Positions 33,096 to 39,389 are shown, numbered from the stretch's first letter. The stretch is 64,000 nt of DNA from an uncultured Candidatus Saccharibacteria bacterium (GCA_964512925.1 CAZEKH010000004.1:72392-136391); one strand, 5' to 3'. The notes: a model not told the origin generated them from the letters alone. Translations and numbers: made by a program.

Positions 33096-33686
33096 ATGAT
33101 ACTTTCAGACAAGGATATAAAACAATATTTGAAAAGCGGGCGGATCCAAGTAGAGCCACTTTTTCCAAATAGCATACAGCCAGCATCGGTTGACCTGCAT
33201 TTGGGCGCGGATTTTTTGGTTTTTTCCACGGATAGCCATACCTTTATAGACCCAAAAGAGCCGATAGATGATATGATGAAAAAAGTTTCCATCAGCGATA
33301 AAAAACAGTTTATTTTGCATCCGGGCGAATTTGCTTTGGGTATGACTTATGAAGTGGTGGGTGTTTCCGAAGATATGGTAGGCAGGCTTGAGGGTAAGTC
33401 CTCTTTGGGCAGGATTGGACTGATTATACACGCTACGGCGGGGTATTTGGATCCGGGCAACAAGCTAAAGATGACTTTGGAGCTATCAAACATTTCTACC
33501 CTGCCTATCAAGCTGTATTACAAAATGCCGATCGCCCAAATGTCTTTTACGCCTCTGTCATCGAAAGCGGACAATGCCTATGGAAAGTCAAAACTTAACA
33601 GCAAATACTACGGCGCTATGAAGCCGCAGGCCAGCCAGTACTGGAAAAATTTTAAAAAAAATAACCAGTGGATGAAATTTAAATAG
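33096..33686 (+). CDS. dcd: dCTP deaminase
   Basis: MILSDKDIKQYL and VDLHLG motifs; dUTPase-fold family. Confidence 0.85.
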   Translation: MILSDKDIKQYLKSGRIQVEPLFPNSIQPASVDLHLGADFLVFSTDSHTFIDPKEPIDDMMKKVSISDKKQFILHPGEFALGMTYEVVGVSEDMVGRLEGKSSLGRIGLIIHATAGYLDPGNKLKMTLELSNISTLPIKLYYKMPIAQMSFTPLSSKADNAYGKSKLNSKYYGAMKPQASQYWKNFKKNNQWMKFK

Positions 33687-33689
33687 ACA

Positions 33690-33728
33690 AATAAAAAAGC
33701 GATTCAAATGTTGGATCGCTTTTTTATA
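33690..33728. terminator. Bidirectional terminator between dcd and the convergent transporter gene
   Basis: AAGCGAT-N11-ATCGCTT flanked by A and T runs. Confidence 0.55.
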
Positions 33729-34701
33729 TTATGATCTTAAGAAAAACAAAAATTGAAAAAAATGAAAGTATGGTTGACACTACCATTGTGGTCGCGGTAA
33801 ATTCAGCATCCAGTCCAAATTTTTCCGCTAACACAAAAGTTGTTGCCGCTGTGGGCATACTGGCAAGCAAAAAAGATGCCGCAATGATTTGCGGTTCAAA
33901 CCCCAGAGTTTTAAACAGTAGCCAGATAAAGCCGGGAAAAATCGCTAATTTTAAGAGGGAAACTAAAACCGAATTTAGTAAATTGGTTCGGCTGAATTTT
34001 CCGTGCATAAAAGCGCCTAATGCAAACAAAGCAACCGGAGAAGCTGTGGCTGCCAGCAGTCCGGCAGAAGATTGGATAATTTCAGAAAACAAATTTTTTT
34101 TTGGCATAAAACTAAAAACAATGCCTAAAACCAGACTAAGTATGAGCGGATTGTAAAAAAAATCTTTTAAATATTGTTTAAAGGTTACTTTGCCGCGACT
34201 GTAATATTCAGAAATCAGTAGGCCAAAAGCTATACCAAAAACCAACTGGCTAGCGCCAATGCCGATTATCAGTCCTGAGTATTCCGGCGCAAAGGCAGCT
34301 TGCCCGATAGGAAAACCCATATAAATGGTATTGCCGACTGTACTGGTAAGCAGGATGGCTGCCTTTAGTTTTTTGCTTATTTTCAAATATTTTAAGAGCA
34401 AGGCCAGTAAACCGCCAAAAATCAACAGGCCAAAAATATTTTGTATGATTGCTTGAAAAATTTGAGGATTTGACCAGTCAATTTTAGACAGGCTAAAAAA
34501 AACAATAGCCGGCAAAGCGACATAATACGCAAAGCCGTTTAGGTCGGACACCCAGGACTGTTTAACCACTTTAAATTTTTTAAGCAAAAATCCGCTAAGA
34601 ATAACGGCAAAAACCGGCATAATAATTAACAAAGTTTGCATTTTGATTTTGGTTTCTTTTGAGAGTTGGGCCGAACTTATTTTGTACACCACTATTTCCA
34701 T
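33724..34701 (-). CDS. AEC (auxin efflux carrier) family transporter
   Basis: About 10 TM segments and the typical two-repeat architecture. Confidence 0.8.
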   Translation of the reverse strand: MEIVVYKISSAQLSKETKIKMQTLLIIMPVFAVILSGFLLKKFKVVKQSWVSDLNGFAYYVALPAIVFFSLSKIDWSNPQIFQAIIQNIFGLLIFGGLLALLLKYLKISKKLKAAILLTSTVGNTIYMGFPIGQAAFAPEYSGLIIGIGASQLVFGIAFGLLISEYYSRGKVTFKQYLKDFFYNPLILSLVLGIVFSFMPKKNLFSEIIQSSAGLLAATASPVALFALGAFMHGKFSRTNLLNSVLVSLLKLAIFPGFIWLLFKTLGFEPQIIAASFLLASMPTAATTFVLAEKFGLDAEFTATTMVVSTILSFFSIFVFLKIII

Positions 34702-34777
34702 TTTGCCTTATTTTCAGGTAAAATACAAGGGAGTTTGACATTAAGCTGGTAAAGGTCAATGTTTAAGATTGGAAGCT

Positions 34778-35230
34778 ATGTTAAAAGCAAAAATTAAAAG
34801 GCTGGATTCTGCTGTTGAATTGCCAAAATATCAGACAGCTGAATCAGCCGGGTTTGATATCGCGTCAAATATTGATTGTATTGTTGAACCGGGGCAAATT
34901 GCTAAGATACCCACAGGTTTGATAGTGGAAGCGCCGGCGGGGCATTTTTTAATGATAGCCGCCAGAGGCAGTACGGCAGCTAAAAAGGGTTTAAAGATGG
35001 CTAATGCAATCGGAATTATAGACAGGGATTTTGCAGGTCCAAACGATGAAATATTTTTACCTATGCATAACTTTACCAACCAGCCGGTTGAATTGAAAAA
35101 GGGTGAAAGGATAGCTCAGGGAGTTTTTGTCAAAGTTGACCAGGCGGTGTGGGAAGAACAGGGGTCAATGCGCGAAAAAGACCGGGGCGGATATGGCAGT
35201 ACCGGTGGATATGAAGAAAATTCAAAATGA
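34778..35230 (+). CDS. dut: dUTP diphosphatase
   Basis: MLKAKIKRL...LPKYQTAESAGFDI; an alternative TTG start lies at 34769. Confidence 0.85.
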   Translation: MLKAKIKRLDSAVELPKYQTAESAGFDIASNIDCIVEPGQIAKIPTGLIVEAPAGHFLMIAARGSTAAKKGLKMANAIGIIDRDFAGPNDEIFLPMHNFTNQPVELKKGERIAQGVFVKVDQAVWEEQGSMREKDRGGYGSTGGYEENSK

Positions 35231-35239
35231 AAATCCTAA

Positions 35240-35812
35240 ATGGAAAATTTGAAGCATAAAATTTTGATCGGTTTAATAGGCGAGAAATTGTCCGGAAAAG
35301 ATACAGCAGCGGATTTTTTGGTTAGAAAATATAAAGCCGAACATTTCCGTACCAGCCATATTTTGGATGAGCTTTTAGATGTTTTGGATCTGCCTAAAAC
35401 CAGGCAAAATGAAATAGCAGCCGGTCGGGGTATGGAGATGGTTTTTGGGGAAAGAGTGATCGGAGACGCGCTGTTAAGTAGAATAAATAAAAGCGCAGCC
35501 CAAGTTGTAGTTAACAATGGGCTGAGGCAGGAATATCAGTTTGAAGATGCGCTTAAAATGGGCGCAAAAATCATCTATATCACGGCGCCGGTAGAGATTC
35601 GTTATGAAAGGTTTTTGTCCCGGGCAGAAAAAACTGAAGATGGGAGGGAATCTATTTCTGACTTCGCCAAGCAGGAAGCTCAGTGGATTGAAAATAAAAT
35701 TCCGGTTTTAGGCGCAAAGGCTGACTATAAAATTGAAAATATGGGTACTTTGGAGGAGTTCTATAAAAAAGTGGAAGAAATTTTTCTGGATATTGAACAT
35801 AAATTAAGTTAA
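35240..35812 (+). CDS. P-loop nucleotide kinase-like protein (dNMP/dephospho-CoA kinase fold)
   Basis: Walker A GLIGEKLSGKDT; sits inside the dut-tmk-thyX cluster. Confidence 0.4.
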   Translation: MENLKHKILIGLIGEKLSGKDTAADFLVRKYKAEHFRTSHILDELLDVLDLPKTRQNEIAAGRGMEMVFGERVIGDALLSRINKSAAQVVVNNGLRQEYQFEDALKMGAKIIYITAPVEIRYERFLSRAEKTEDGRESISDFAKQEAQWIENKIPVLGAKADYKIENMGTLEEFYKKVEEIFLDIEHKLS

Positions 35813-35816
35813 ATCT

Positions 35817-36566
35817 ATGTCATTTTTAAAAAAAATTATGGGGAAAAATAATGCGGATATGTCCCAGAAGCGCGGGAGGTTTGTGGTGATTGACGGAACT
35901 GACGGCAGCGGCAAAGCCACCCAGACGCAGATGCTGATGGATACTTTGAAAGCCGAAGGTTTTGAGTTTGAAGTCGCGGACTTTCCTCAGTATGGGCAAA
36001 AGTCGGCTGCGATGGTTGAGGAATATCTGATAAATAAAAAATACGGACAGGTGAATCCATATGCCGCTTCCACCTTTTACGCTATTGACCGGTTTGACGC
36101 GAGTTTTAAAATCCGCAAATGGCTCGAAGAGGGTAGGGTTGTTGTTTCCAACCGCTATGTGACTGCCAGCGCCGGTCATCAGGGGGGGAAAATTTCCGAC
36201 CAGGACGAGCGCAATAAATTTTTCAGCTGGCTTAACCGGCTGGAGTATGAAATTTTTGGTATCCCGAGGCCGGATTTGAATATCATCCTTCATATGCCGG
36301 CGGAAATGGCGCAAAAATTGGCGCAAAAAAAATGGGAGGACCAGAAGGAGTATATGAATGGAAAGAAAACCGATCTACACGAAGAGGATTTGAATCATTT
36401 GAAAAATGCGGAAAAAGTTTTTATAGAAATTTCCAATTTGTTCCCCAACACCAAACTGGTAGAATGCCTCGACGGAGAAAGGCTGCTGAGTCCCCAGGAA
36501 GTCCATAACAAAGTTTGGGAAATGGTCAGAAGAATTGCTTTGAAAGATTATAAGTTAAAAAAATAA
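35817..36566 (+). CDS. tmk: Thymidylate kinase (long, eukaryote/archaea-like form)
   Basis: P-loop IDGTDGSGKATQ and a DRF/DRY-like motif AIDRFDAS. Confidence 0.85.
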   Translation: MSFLKKIMGKNNADMSQKRGRFVVIDGTDGSGKATQTQMLMDTLKAEGFEFEVADFPQYGQKSAAMVEEYLINKKYGQVNPYAASTFYAIDRFDASFKIRKWLEEGRVVVSNRYVTASAGHQGGKISDQDERNKFFSWLNRLEYEIFGIPRPDLNIILHMPAEMAQKLAQKKWEDQKEYMNGKKTDLHEEDLNHLKNAEKVFIEISNLFPNTKLVECLDGERLLSPQEVHNKVWEMVRRIALKDYKLKK

Positions 36567-36570
36567 ACAT

Positions 36571-38256
36571 ATGTTCACTGAAGAAGAAAAAAAAGTTTTA
36601 CAAAAATTTGTCACTTCTGCTGAAGATAATATTTTTGCCATACGCGGGATGCCCGGGATGGTTGGGGCGGCGTATGCCCGTTATAGCAGGGCCAAGGGCG
36701 GCTTTAGAGAAGTATTGCTTAAAGAGTTTATAGAAGCTGGCAATATTGATCCCAAGCACGCTGACGAGCTGATTGCCAGGGTCTTGGTTGCGTACGGGGA
36801 CGACTCAGTGGGCGAGCTTGAAGGCGCGCATATCAGTTTTGAAAAAATATCAATGCTGGCGGCTAAAGAAATTGAAGATCGCAGGATCGGAGGAAGTCCG
36901 ATTGAGCAGTCTACCCGTTATGTTCTCTATGACCAAAAAACCGAGGATGGAAAATGGCTGTATTATAGGGGCGATGATGTGCTTAAAACCTCCTTTGGAA
37001 AATTGTATGAAGAAACGATGGATTTTATTTTTCAGACCTATTCAGAATTAGTTGAGCCTTTAAAAAAACATTTGGAAAATCAAAAGCCGTTGTCTGAAGC
37101 GGAATATGATATAAATGGCGATGGTAAAAAGGAGCTTTTAAGCGAATTGACTGATGACAAGCAGATCAAAGCTTTTAAACAAACTTATACTTTTGAACTG
37201 AGGGCTAAAGCTTGTGATATTTTAAGGTCTTTTTTGCCCATAGCCACCCTGACAAATGTTGGGATGTTTGGAAATGGCAGATTTTATCAAGGATTGATTT
37301 CTTATCTTCTAACTACTGATTTACCGGAAAATCACAGTGTGGCGGCGGGCGCTCAGAAAGCTTTGTCAGAAATTATCCCTCAGTACATAAGACGCGCTCA
37401 GAGAAGCGAGTACATAGCGGAAAATCGCCGGGCGATGTTTAGTTTAACCAAAGAAATGTTAAAAAGCCATAAAGCCCATCCGCCTTTGGAATTGCCAGAG
37501 TTTGTTTTACAAGACAGGGGAGAAAAAATTATAGAAAAAATTATTAAAGAAGGCGGTTTGGTGGAGAATGCTTTAAACCGAGCGGAGGAAATTTCGCTTT
37601 TAGCAATGATGCTATATTCATATAGTGATTTTGCTTTAGCTGATTTGAGACTGATTGTGGAAAATTTGTCTGAAGAGGAAAAAATAAAAATATTCCAAAC
37701 TTATATGGGAGAAAGAAAAACCAGAAGAGATCGTCCCGGCAGGGCTATGGAAGACGGTTATTCGTATAATTTTGATATGGTTACCAATTTTGGGGTTTAT
37801 AAAGATTTACAAAGGCACCGGATGAATACCCAAACCCGCCAGTTGTTTACAACCAAGCTTGGTTTTTTTTACGCGCCTGAACTGGAAGCTGTGGGCGCGA
37901 TGGAAAAAGCGAAATTGTGTGTGGAAAAATCCAATCAATTGTTTGAAAAAATGCATTTGGAAAATCCGGAACTAGCTCAGTATGCGGTGCTGCACGGGCA
38001 TTATATCCGCTGGTATATGGGTTTTAACGACCGAGAAGCTATGCATCTTTTAGAACTTCGTTCAACACCGCAAGGTCATCCGAATTACAGGCAGGCCGCT
38101 CAACAAATGCATAAATTGATCTTAGAAAGGTCAGAGCCAAGAGGTTCGGCTATGAAGTTTGTGGATCACAATGAATACTACTGGTCAAGGGCGGACAGCG
38201 AAGCCAAGCAGCGGGTTAAGGAAGCCGAACTTGATAAAAAATTCGGGAAAATTTAA
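36571..38256 (+). CDS. thyX: Flavin-dependent thymidylate synthase ThyX, tandem double-domain fusion
   Basis: The N half carries RRIGGSPIEQSTRY (RHR-x7-S-x-RY with H replaced by R). The C half carries DLQRHR with an altered Ser region. The protein is about twice the usual ThyX length. Confidence 0.6.
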   Translation: MFTEEEKKVLQKFVTSAEDNIFAIRGMPGMVGAAYARYSRAKGGFREVLLKEFIEAGNIDPKHADELIARVLVAYGDDSVGELEGAHISFEKISMLAAKEIEDRRIGGSPIEQSTRYVLYDQKTEDGKWLYYRGDDVLKTSFGKLYEETMDFIFQTYSELVEPLKKHLENQKPLSEAEYDINGDGKKELLSELTDDKQIKAFKQTYTFELRAKACDILRSFLPIATLTNVGMFGNGRFYQGLISYLLTTDLPENHSVAAGAQKALSEIIPQYIRRAQRSEYIAENRRAMFSLTKEMLKSHKAHPPLELPEFVLQDRGEKIIEKIIKEGGLVENALNRAEEISLLAMMLYSYSDFALADLRLIVENLSEEEKIKIFQTYMGERKTRRDRPGRAMEDGYSYNFDMVTNFGVYKDLQRHRMNTQTRQLFTTKLGFFYAPELEAVGAMEKAKLCVEKSNQLFEKMHLENPELAQYAVLHGHYIRWYMGFNDREAMHLLELRSTPQGHPNYRQAAQQMHKLILERSEPRGSAMKFVDHNEYYWSRADSEAKQRVKEAELDKKFGKI

Positions 38257-38312: not shown

Positions 38313-39389
38313 TTGAAGGAATTGGTAAAAAAAATCGAAGAGCTTTTGTTGGAAATTTCCAAGCTAAAACAGCATTTAAACCTGCCACAAAAAGAGCAGA
38401 GGGTTTTGGAATTGGAAGATATGATGAATCAGGGAGGTTTTTGGGATGACAATGAGAAAGCCCAAAAAATTTCCAAAGAATACAGCGGGCTGAAAAAGTT
38501 TTATGATTTTTGGATAGATTTGGAAAAGGAAACCAAAGAACTTTTGGAACTTGCCAAAGCTGAAACAGATGCTGATTTTTTTTCCAAACAATACGAAGTC
38601 TTGGTAAAAAAATACAAAGAAAACAGATTTGTGGCTTTAATGTCAAAAAAATACGACGATCATAGCGCGATTTTTTCTTTGCATTCCGGCGCCGGGGGAG
38701 TGGACGCGCAGGATTGGGCGGACATCCTTTTAAGGATGTTTTTACGGTATTGCGAAAGAAAAAATTTGGAAACAGAAGTTTTGGAACTCTCCAGGGGCGA
38801 GCAGGGAGGTCTGAAGACTTGTGTGGTGGAAGTAAGAGGTCCATATGCTTACGGGCTTTTAAAAAGCGAAGCCGGAGTGCATCGTTTGGTTAGGCTTAGC
38901 CCTTTTAATCCTGCGCATACTCGGGAGACTTCTTTTGCGCTCTTAGAGCTTTTGCCGGTTTTGGAAGAAAAAGAAACAATTGAACTTGACCCCAAAGACC
39001 TGAAAATAGAAGCCAATACGGCCTCAGGCCACGGCGGCCAGTCGGTTAATACCACTTATAGCGCTATTCGCATCACTCATATTCCTACGGGGCTTAAGGT
39101 GTCGATTCAAAATGAACGTTCCCAGCACCAAAATCGCGAATTGGCAATGAAAATCCTGATGTCCAAGCTGAAAACATTGGAGGAAGAAAAAATGCAAAAA
39201 GAAAAACAAGCAATTCGAGGCGAGTTTAAATCCGCAGAGTGGGGCAATCAAATACGCTCGTATGTCATTCATCCGTATAAAATGGTCAAAGACCATAGAA
39301 CAAATTACGAGACTTCAGACCCCGATTCAGTTTTTAATGGCGAATTGGATGAGTTTGTGGAAAGTTATTTGGAAAAAGTAGCCGTCTAA
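38313..39389 (+). CDS. prfB: Peptide chain release factor 2
   Basis: SPF tripeptide and GGQ motif. Continuous ORF from TTG with SD TAAGGGG; no programmed +1 frameshift site. Confidence 0.9.
   Translation: MKELVKKIEELLLEISKLKQHLNLPQKEQRVLELEDMMNQGGFWDDNEKAQKISKEYSGLKKFYDFWIDLEKETKELLELAKAETDADFFSKQYEVLVKKYKENRFVALMSKKYDDHSAIFSLHSGAGGVDAQDWADILLRMFLRYCERKNLETEVLELSRGEQGGLKTCVVEVRGPYAYGLLKSEAGVHRLVRLSPFNPAHTRETSFALLELLPVLEEKETIELDPKDLKIEANTASGHGGQSVNTTYSAIRITHIPTGLKVSIQNERSQHQNRELAMKILMSKLKTLEEEKMQKEKQAIRGEFKSAEWGNQIRSYVIHPYKMVKDHRTNYETSDPDSVFNGELDEFVESYLEKVAV

Follow-up and report, generated by a model that had tools for sequence, protein, structure and literature searches.

ThyX, the flavin-dependent thymidylate synthase (FDTS), is absent from humans and is an antibacterial drug target, and structural and mechanistic work on it rests on a symmetric homotetramer. 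The canonical enzyme consists of a single domain of about 220 to 260 amino acids (aa), in which an RHR motif and a serine-bearing loop lie in the same chain; it assembles as a homotetramer with four identical active sites, each located at an interface of three monomers (PMC11940539; PMC6514825). A 'duplicated ThyX' was noticed by Valas & Bourne 2009 in Chloroflexi and 'a few other species', a form that they called uncharacterised and of which they recorded the duplication only (PMC3224940). Here we describe a gene for a double-length ThyX of 561 aa in a 64,000-nucleotide stretch of DNA (hereafter, the window) from an uncultured Candidatus Saccharibacteria bacterium (GCA_964512925.1 CAZEKH010000004.1:72392-136391). 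The residues of a ThyX active site are divided between the two halves of this protein. We infer, with a probability of about 0.75, that it is a functional ThyX composed of two ancient, diverged and fused domains, and that a dimer of it would constitute a pseudo-tetramer with two complete and two degenerate sites.

The published structures assign the residues of a canonical site to particular subunits. In site 1 of Mycobacterium tuberculosis ThyX (equivalents in the Thermotoga maritima enzyme, Tm, in brackets), subunit A provides the RHR motif at residues 95-97 and R199 (Tm R174), subunit B provides S71 (T55) and R190 (R165), and subunit C provides R87, Q103 (E86), S105 (S88), R107 (R90) and Y108 (Y91) (PMC6514825). 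In an inhibitor complex of the ThyX of Paramecium bursaria chlorella virus 1 (PBCV-1), monomer A likewise gives Gln75 and Arg182 and monomer B gives Ser88 and Gln89 (PMC3498832). From these assignments it follows that the RHR/R174 residues and the serine loop of any one canonical chain serve different sites. T. maritima ThyX mutated at S88, R90 or Y91 is strongly impaired, while R174 activates the substrate, deoxyuridine monophosphate (dUMP) (PMC8316439; PMC11940539); the phosphate of dUMP is bound in M. tuberculosis ThyX by R172 (Tm R147) together with R87 (PMC12004180).

Two ThyX domains in one chain

A preliminary description of the window, made from the sequence alone, had read the 561-aa product as two ThyX-like halves, and profile comparisons bear this out. 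The whole protein matches Pfam Thy1 (PF02511) in two stretches with 102.8 bits, and each half when searched separately also exceeds the gathering cut-off of 24.8, the N half (aa 1-300) with 52.2 bits (E=8.6e-14) and the C half (aa 301-561) with 52.7 bits (E=6.1e-14). Profile-profile alignment with hhalign compared 121 diverse family members with a canonical profile of 120 ThyX sequences built around T. maritima TM0449 (the sequence used is identical to PDB 1KQ4). The N half aligned with a probability of 93.8% (E 1.8e-7), and the C half with one of 96.6% (E 4.8e-10). The depth of the profiles matters here: a shallow alignment of Patescibacteria only, compared with the single TM0449 sequence, returned the N half at an unreliable probability of 2%.

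The predicted structure agrees. An AlphaFold2 model was confident for both domains (mean predicted local distance difference test score, pLDDT, 88.6; predicted TM-score 0.87), and a Foldseek search of the PDB with this model recovered ThyX structures only, from M. tuberculosis, Thermus thermophilus, T. maritima and PBCV-1, at target-normalised TM values of 0.5-0.57. Neither of the two outcomes that the preliminary description had named as overturning its proposal occurred: both halves match ThyX profiles, and the predicted fold points to no other flavoprotein family. No two-domain ThyX structure was found in the PDB by the same search. The sole segment of the model with a pLDDT below 50 comprises residues 76-84, which fall within the N-half loop GDDSVGELEGAH; low scores would be expected of a loop that is ordered by its ligand.

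Division of the catalytic residues between the halves

The correspondence between the two halves and the T. maritima enzyme is given in Table 1, in which all counts refer to 121 diverse homologues that represent clusters at 50% identity. In the N half, the motif RRIGGSPIEQSTRY carries the equivalents of Tm R80, E86, S88, R90 and Y91, preceded or begun by D103 and R104 at the positions of R78 and H79. The preliminary description was right that the Ser-x-RY part is intact here, but its statement that RHR is reduced to RR does not hold for the family, in which R104 is variable, R105 alone is conserved and the pattern is x-x-R. Further along the N half, DILRSFLP supplies R219 (Tm R147, M. tuberculosis R172) and D216, which corresponds to Tm E144 and is kept in 121/121 representatives. 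The loop GDDSVGELEGAH aligns with the flavin/folate loop of the T. maritima enzyme (H51-H59); its S79 is the equivalent of Tm T55 and M. tuberculosis S71, and G76, D77 and S79 are each conserved in at least 95% of the representatives.

In the C half the pattern is the opposite one, as had been proposed. The motif DLQRHRMNTQTRQLF contains an intact RHR, but no Ser, Arg or Tyr follows at the canonical +10, +12 and +13 positions, so that the loop has no equivalents of Ser88, Arg90 or Tyr91. The segment LLELRSTPQGH contributes R497, the dUMP-activating arginine. The canonical signature RHR-x7-S(xRY) is thus found in neither domain: the N half reads xxR-x8-STRY, the C half has RHR without Ser, Arg and Tyr, and the full motif is present solely when the two are combined. 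Across both halves, the equivalents of Tm R78, H79, R80, E86, S88, R90, Y91, R147 and R174 are all present and 95-100% conserved.

Table 1. Residues of T. maritima ThyX and their equivalents in the two halves of the double-length protein
T. maritima residue	N half	C half
H53	D77	R386
T55	S79 (invariant)	R388 (K/R)
E58	E82 (E/Q)	E394 (invariant)
R74	K99	K411 (family: mostly R)
R78	D103 (variable)	R415 (121/121)
H79	R104 (variable: G/R/A/S/P)	H416 (115/121)
R80	R105 (121/121)	R417 (120/121)
E86	E112 (119/121)	none
S88	S114 (121/121)	none
R90	R116 (121/121)	none
Y91	Y117 (119/121)	L/F
R147	R219 (120/121)	Q470
N163	N235 (N/S/T)	N486 (112/121)
R165	R237 (R/Q)	R488 (117/121)
R174	Y245/L246	R497 (120/121)

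When these residues are placed on the published subunit roles, the division acquires a direction. The residues that act in subunit A (R415, H416, R417 and R497) are confined to the C half and those that act in subunit C (E112, S114, R116 and Y117) to the N half, so that every loss falls on the same, reciprocal site. These eight residues have a mean conservation of 0.99, whereas the reciprocal positions have a mean of 0.49, against a background of 0.51 for the protein as a whole. The complementary degeneration that had been suggested from one sequence is therefore a property of the family once subunit roles are taken into account. Given the importance of S88, R90, Y91 and R174 in the T. maritima enzyme, it is very unlikely, to judge from the aligned sequences, that the reciprocal pocket is catalytic. 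The N half probably supplies the phosphate ligand of the Arg147 type (R219) as well: its invariance there fits the joint action of M. tuberculosis R172 with R87, which belongs to subunit C, and on this basis R147 would be assigned to that subunit too.

Fused duplicated enzymes in many cases keep a dead scaffold domain, and the two halves of the present protein are barely recognisable as homologues of one another, their mutual hhalign alignment being weak (E 1.3e-3). One half could on these grounds be taken for a purely structural pseudo-domain, with the other forming canonical sites with its own copies in a higher oligomer. The residue map makes this extremely improbable. R78, H79 and R174 are missing from the N half, as E86, S88, R90 and Y91 are from the C half; because neither possesses the full set, no complete site results from N-N or C-C pairing. 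Moreover, both halves are equally conserved overall, with median identities to the query of 35% (N half) and 33% (C half).

Two basic motifs were also observed that are family-specific, each without a counterpart in the opposite half. In the C half, R382-x2-R385-R386-x-K/R388-P-G-R391 (aa 382-391; 37714-37743) is near-invariant and lies where canonical ThyX has its His53 loop; in the N half, A-R37-Y-S39-R40 (aa 37-40; 36679-36690) is near-invariant and matches the canonical 'AARVS'. Either may contact flavin adenine dinucleotide (FAD), reduced nicotinamide adenine dinucleotide phosphate (NADPH) or folate.

Proposed sites and their genomic setting

In a canonical site, the first subunit contributes RHR and Arg174 (FAD phosphates, flavin and dUMP activation), the second contributes the loop with Glu86, Ser88, Arg90 and Tyr91, which binds dUMP and takes part in catalysis, and the third contributes Thr55 and Arg165 (FAD). 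In the fused protein, the C half has probably become specialised as the donor of RHR and Arg174 and the N half as the donor of the dUMP loop. Because a site needs three ThyX domains, a lone two-domain chain would be insufficient and a homodimer would be the minimal unit. Such a homodimer, with four domains, would mimic the D2 tetramer of ThyX, each complete FAD/dUMP site forming where a C half (as 'A') meets an N half (as 'C'), while the reciprocal site, with the N half as 'A' and the C half as 'C', would be defective from both sides. With sites composed of A-alpha, B-gamma and C-beta, and with the alpha and beta roles reciprocal between A and C, two live and two dead sites are predicted whichever of the two possible two-fold axes is the true one. 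Only half of the possible active sites would thus probably work. The arrangement predicts that each 561-aa chain binds one FAD and one dUMP, with two active sites in a dimer of about 130 kDa; the convergence of the residue set on one site in three dimensions is deduced from the published subunit roles. Subfunctionalised half-sites, as first suggested, are supported by the sequence and its profile matches, by the fold of the model and by conservation across homologues; the quaternary arrangement and the activity would be of the kind just outlined.

Several observations weigh against this interpretation. The score of the protein against the NCBIfam thyX equivalog model (TIGR02170) is 34.8 bits, well under the cut-off of 87.9. 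A single-sequence phmmer search of PDB sequences yielded no match, and a 46-sequence profile yielded a marginal one to M. tuberculosis ThyX (E 0.22); it was because of these outcomes that fold search and profile-profile alignment were used. The residues of the third subunit are in conflict: S79 (Tm T55), in the N half, never varies, whereas for Tm R165 it is the C half, with R488, that shows the better conservation. Finally, R105 in the N half (36883-36885), the equivalent of an FAD-phosphate ligand of canonical ThyX (Tm R80), is invariant in 121/121 although it would lie in the degenerate reciprocal pocket.

This last point invites the suggestion that all four pockets are active, with family-specific residues (R105 of the N half and Q421, R423 and Q424 of the C half, for instance) standing in for the lost Ser88, Arg90 and Tyr91 and for Arg78, His79 and Arg174. 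With Q424 present in 106/121 representatives and R423 occupied by R or W in 106/121, the reciprocal pocket is indeed not fully random. However, the reciprocal equivalents of the eight key residues do not rise above background, the position of R174 is taken by Y, L, K or M, and S88, R90 and Y91 have no conserved chemical equivalent; in canonical ThyX these residues are catalytically relevant. We consider four active pockets quite unlikely. It is likewise unlikely that the degenerate pockets have been repurposed, for example to dock NAD(P)H or the tail of the folate, or to bind a nucleotide allosterically, with R105 and Q424/R423 as anchors for the ligand. Were this true, reduction and methylation would be physically separated; in canonical ThyX one pocket serves both half-reactions.

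The distance from the equivalog cut-off, and the remoteness of the protein from every solved ThyX, could instead point to a ThyX-fold enzyme with another activity, such as C5 modification of uracil or cytosine in the manner of the PolB-type UMP methylases, or to non-catalytic nucleotide binding, in either case not to the thymidylate synthase of the cell. ThyX-fold enzymes with other substrates are known, PolB being an example. This, too, is improbable: no residue for dUMP, FAD or catalysis is missing from the combined set, which is 95-100% conserved, the gene closes a dcd-dut-kinase-tmk cluster, and the same form is the sole ThyX-type gene in the sampled Chlamydiae, a phylum in which ThyX is present and ThyA absent (PMC5954106).

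The cluster itself (Table 2) favours a genuine thymidylate synthase role for the fused protein, in that it encodes the steps from dCTP via dUTP, dUMP and dTMP to dTDP. The preliminary description had placed thyX at the end of a dut-kinase-tmk cluster, and the three genes upstream do match the expected Pfam families, with the thyX open reading frame (ORF) starting 4 nt past the stop codon of tmk. The neighbouring dcd and dut would furnish dUMP, and the dTMP formed would pass to the neighbouring tmk. The order dcd-dut-kinase-tmk-thyX-prfB is kept in the closest Doudnabacteria loci (L001 and L003), tmk or dut adjoins a double-length thyX in two Parcubacteria loci, and dcd lies within 4 kb of a double-length thyX in 10/80 genomes from several phyla, including archaea. 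A second thyX, or a thyA, was not found by tblastn with TM0449 and E. coli ThyA in the 64 kb of the window, which is part of a genome.

Table 2. Features of the window, by position and strand
Feature	Position	Strand	Evidence
Gene for the double-length ThyX (561 aa), a flavin-dependent thymidylate synthase	36571..38256	+	ORF, Pfam Thy1, AlphaFold2 model, Foldseek
N half, aa 1-300, ThyX-like, retains dUMP-loop ('subunit C') residues	36571..37470	+	Pfam Thy1, hhalign
C half, aa 301-561, ThyX-like, retains RHR/FAD ('subunit A') residues	37471..38253	+	Pfam Thy1, hhalign
N-half loop GDDSVGELEGAH, aa 76-87	36796..36831	+	alignment
N-half motif RRIGGSPIEQSTRY, residues 104-117	36880..36921	+	translation, alignment
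N-half DILRSFLP, D216 and R219	37216..37239	+	translation, alignment
C-half motif DLQRHRMNTQTRQLF, residues 412-426	37804..37848	+	translation
C-half RHR, R415-H416-R417 (Tm R78-H79-R80)	37813..37821	+	translation, alignment, conservation
C-half R497 (Tm R174, M. tuberculosis R199), dUMP-activating arginine	38059..38061	+	translation, alignment, 120/121
dCTP deaminase (dcd), first of the dTTP-pathway cluster	33096..33686	+	Pfam DCD E=3.3e-42
Mem_trans/AEC-family transporter, between dcd and dut	33724..34701	-	
dUTPase (dut), dUMP supplier	34769..35230	+	Pfam dUTPase E=6.1e-22
DNMK-like nucleotide kinase	35240..35812	+	Pfam DNMK E=2.1e-9; NCBIfam PRK08356 E=3.2e-17, under cut-off
Thymidylate kinase (tmk), dTMP consumer	35817..36566	+	Pfam Thymidylate_kin E=3.8e-20
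RF2 (prfB) homologue, downstream of thyX	38313..39389	+	TTG start

Some further observations concern the neighbours. The DNMK-like kinase, which would be a second (d)NMP kinase beside tmk, matches the phage-type deoxynucleotide monophosphate kinase family, and its location is conserved in L001, L003 and a third locus, L005. In L001 and L003 dcd directly abuts dut, without a transporter between; the transporter of the window consequently looks inserted into a nucleotide operon and, on this comparison of gene order, has the appearance of a lineage-specific insertion. A programmed +1 frameshift is common in bacterial prfB; the prfB ORF of the window is single and uninterrupted, the ORF listing gave no sign of such a frameshift, and the gene was not analysed further.

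Distribution and comparison with known forms

The double-length form is widespread. A protein collection at 90% identity contains 3711 homologues, the best 120 of which are all about 540-590 aa long; some of these are already named FAD-dependent thymidylate synthase (in Doudnabacteria, Liptonbacteria and Patescibacteria). A full HMMER scan of 1.84 billion representatives returned 4393 clusters at E<1e-3, of which 749 reached E<1e-30; among the 150 listed with the best scores, nearly all are 500-600 aa long. The double-length asymmetric form thus comprises no fewer than 749 clusters at 50% identity. In data with one genome per species, relatives of full length, covering residues 2 to about 555, are encoded at 596 or more loci. 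Among bacteria these are in Patescibacteria, Nitrospinota, Binatia, Chloroflexi (Chloroflexus, Roseiflexus), Cyanobacteria (Calothrix, Westiellopsis, Prochloron), Acidobacteria and Chlamydiae (Waddlia and others), and among archaea in Thaumarchaeota and the DPANN group. The window protein is 54-74% identical to its nearest relatives and 33-45% identical, over the full length, to relatives outside Patescibacteria; judged by its sequence, this copy is from a Doudnabacteria-like Patescibacterium.

The ThyX of Waddlia has the same split motifs, 'EDARIGGSPLEKSTRY' and 'DLHRHRMLTQERQ', and homologues of the same length occur in Parachlamydia, Protochlamydia and Neochlamydia. In a search with the Waddlia protein, the matches listed were from environmental chlamydiae only and included none from Chlamydia trachomatis. 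CT632 of C. trachomatis, at about 529 aa, would presumably be a double-length member; it was reportedly found by Griffin and colleagues in 2005 to be an active FDTS and was used by Basta and colleagues in 2012.

Viruses carry related proteins. A model of a 491-aa 'thymidylate synthase' from Microcystis phage Ma-LMM01 (BFVD, A0A7D4) aligns with the query along its entire length (561 columns, E 2e-15, TMq 0.56), and a second viral protein, of 461 aa, also aligned to the double-length query in this structural search of viral models; the fused form is therefore present in phages as well. On a metagenome contig of the Joint Genome Institute (JGI; Ga0654430_0045532, locus L081:207-1885), a close relative is split exactly at the linker between the halves into two genes, for an N part of 310 aa and a C part of 248 aa, which overlap by 1 nt; both products match Thy1, and a gene for dihydrofolate reductase follows. 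The split arises from a tandem repeat of 8 bp (ATGAATTA followed by ATGAAT), and deletion of 8 nt restores a single frame; it could be a viable natural division into two subunits or a sequencing error on a single 2.5-kb contig. A second candidate split (L082) was rejected as a fragment at a contig end. These two cases are insufficient for us to claim a natural heteromeric form made of N-only and C-only proteins.

What significance these results have attaches to the double-length family, with nothing specific to the gene in the window. The fused form is the chlamydial version in every genome sampled and probably in Chlamydia itself, and it is also that of ammonia-oxidising archaea, many cyanobacteria, Chloroflexi, the candidate phyla radiation and DPANN archaea. 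As far as the aligned sequences go, the asymmetry of the split motifs is ancient and characterises a huge family, of which the window gene is a typical member. In the literature searched, which was incomplete, no description of complementary residue retention was found, the duplication remark of Valas & Bourne 2009 being all that came to light; the half-of-sites asymmetry of this already annotated family appears to be under-described. If there are only two composite sites, each made from one 'flavin' and one 'dUMP' domain that have specialised, they would amount to a natural experiment confirming that ThyX sites act in trans, they would set one FAD per chain as the stoichiometry to expect, and they would offer asymmetric interfaces and dead pockets as sites for selective inhibitors.

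The window protein belongs with the duplicated ThyX of Valas & Bourne, including the chlamydial proteins annotated 'FAD-dependent / alternative thymidylate synthase'. It shares their full-length two-domain architecture within a chain of about 510-600 aa and their split motifs, the N half having the serine loop and R147 and the C half having RHR and R174. The double-length ThyX of phage Ma-LMM01 differs in being viral, shorter and 20% identical. A functional precedent may exist in experiments by Leduc and colleagues in 2004, in which ThyX mutants inactivated at different residues reportedly complemented one another in heterotetramers, the residues acting in trans; those were engineered mixtures of point mutants of one gene, whereas the window protein is natural, covalently fused and evolutionarily fixed. 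With canonical ThyX (T. maritima TM0449, PDB 1KQ4/1O26/4GT9; M. tuberculosis, 2AF6/3GWC) it has in common the fold and the equivalents of RHR, Glu86, Ser88, Arg90, Tyr91, Arg147 and Arg174, a set present once, and presumably also the construction of each site from several ThyX domains. Unlike canonical ThyX, it would bring these residues together from two diverged domains of a 561-aa chain in which the motif is split, presumably with two live sites and two dead ones.

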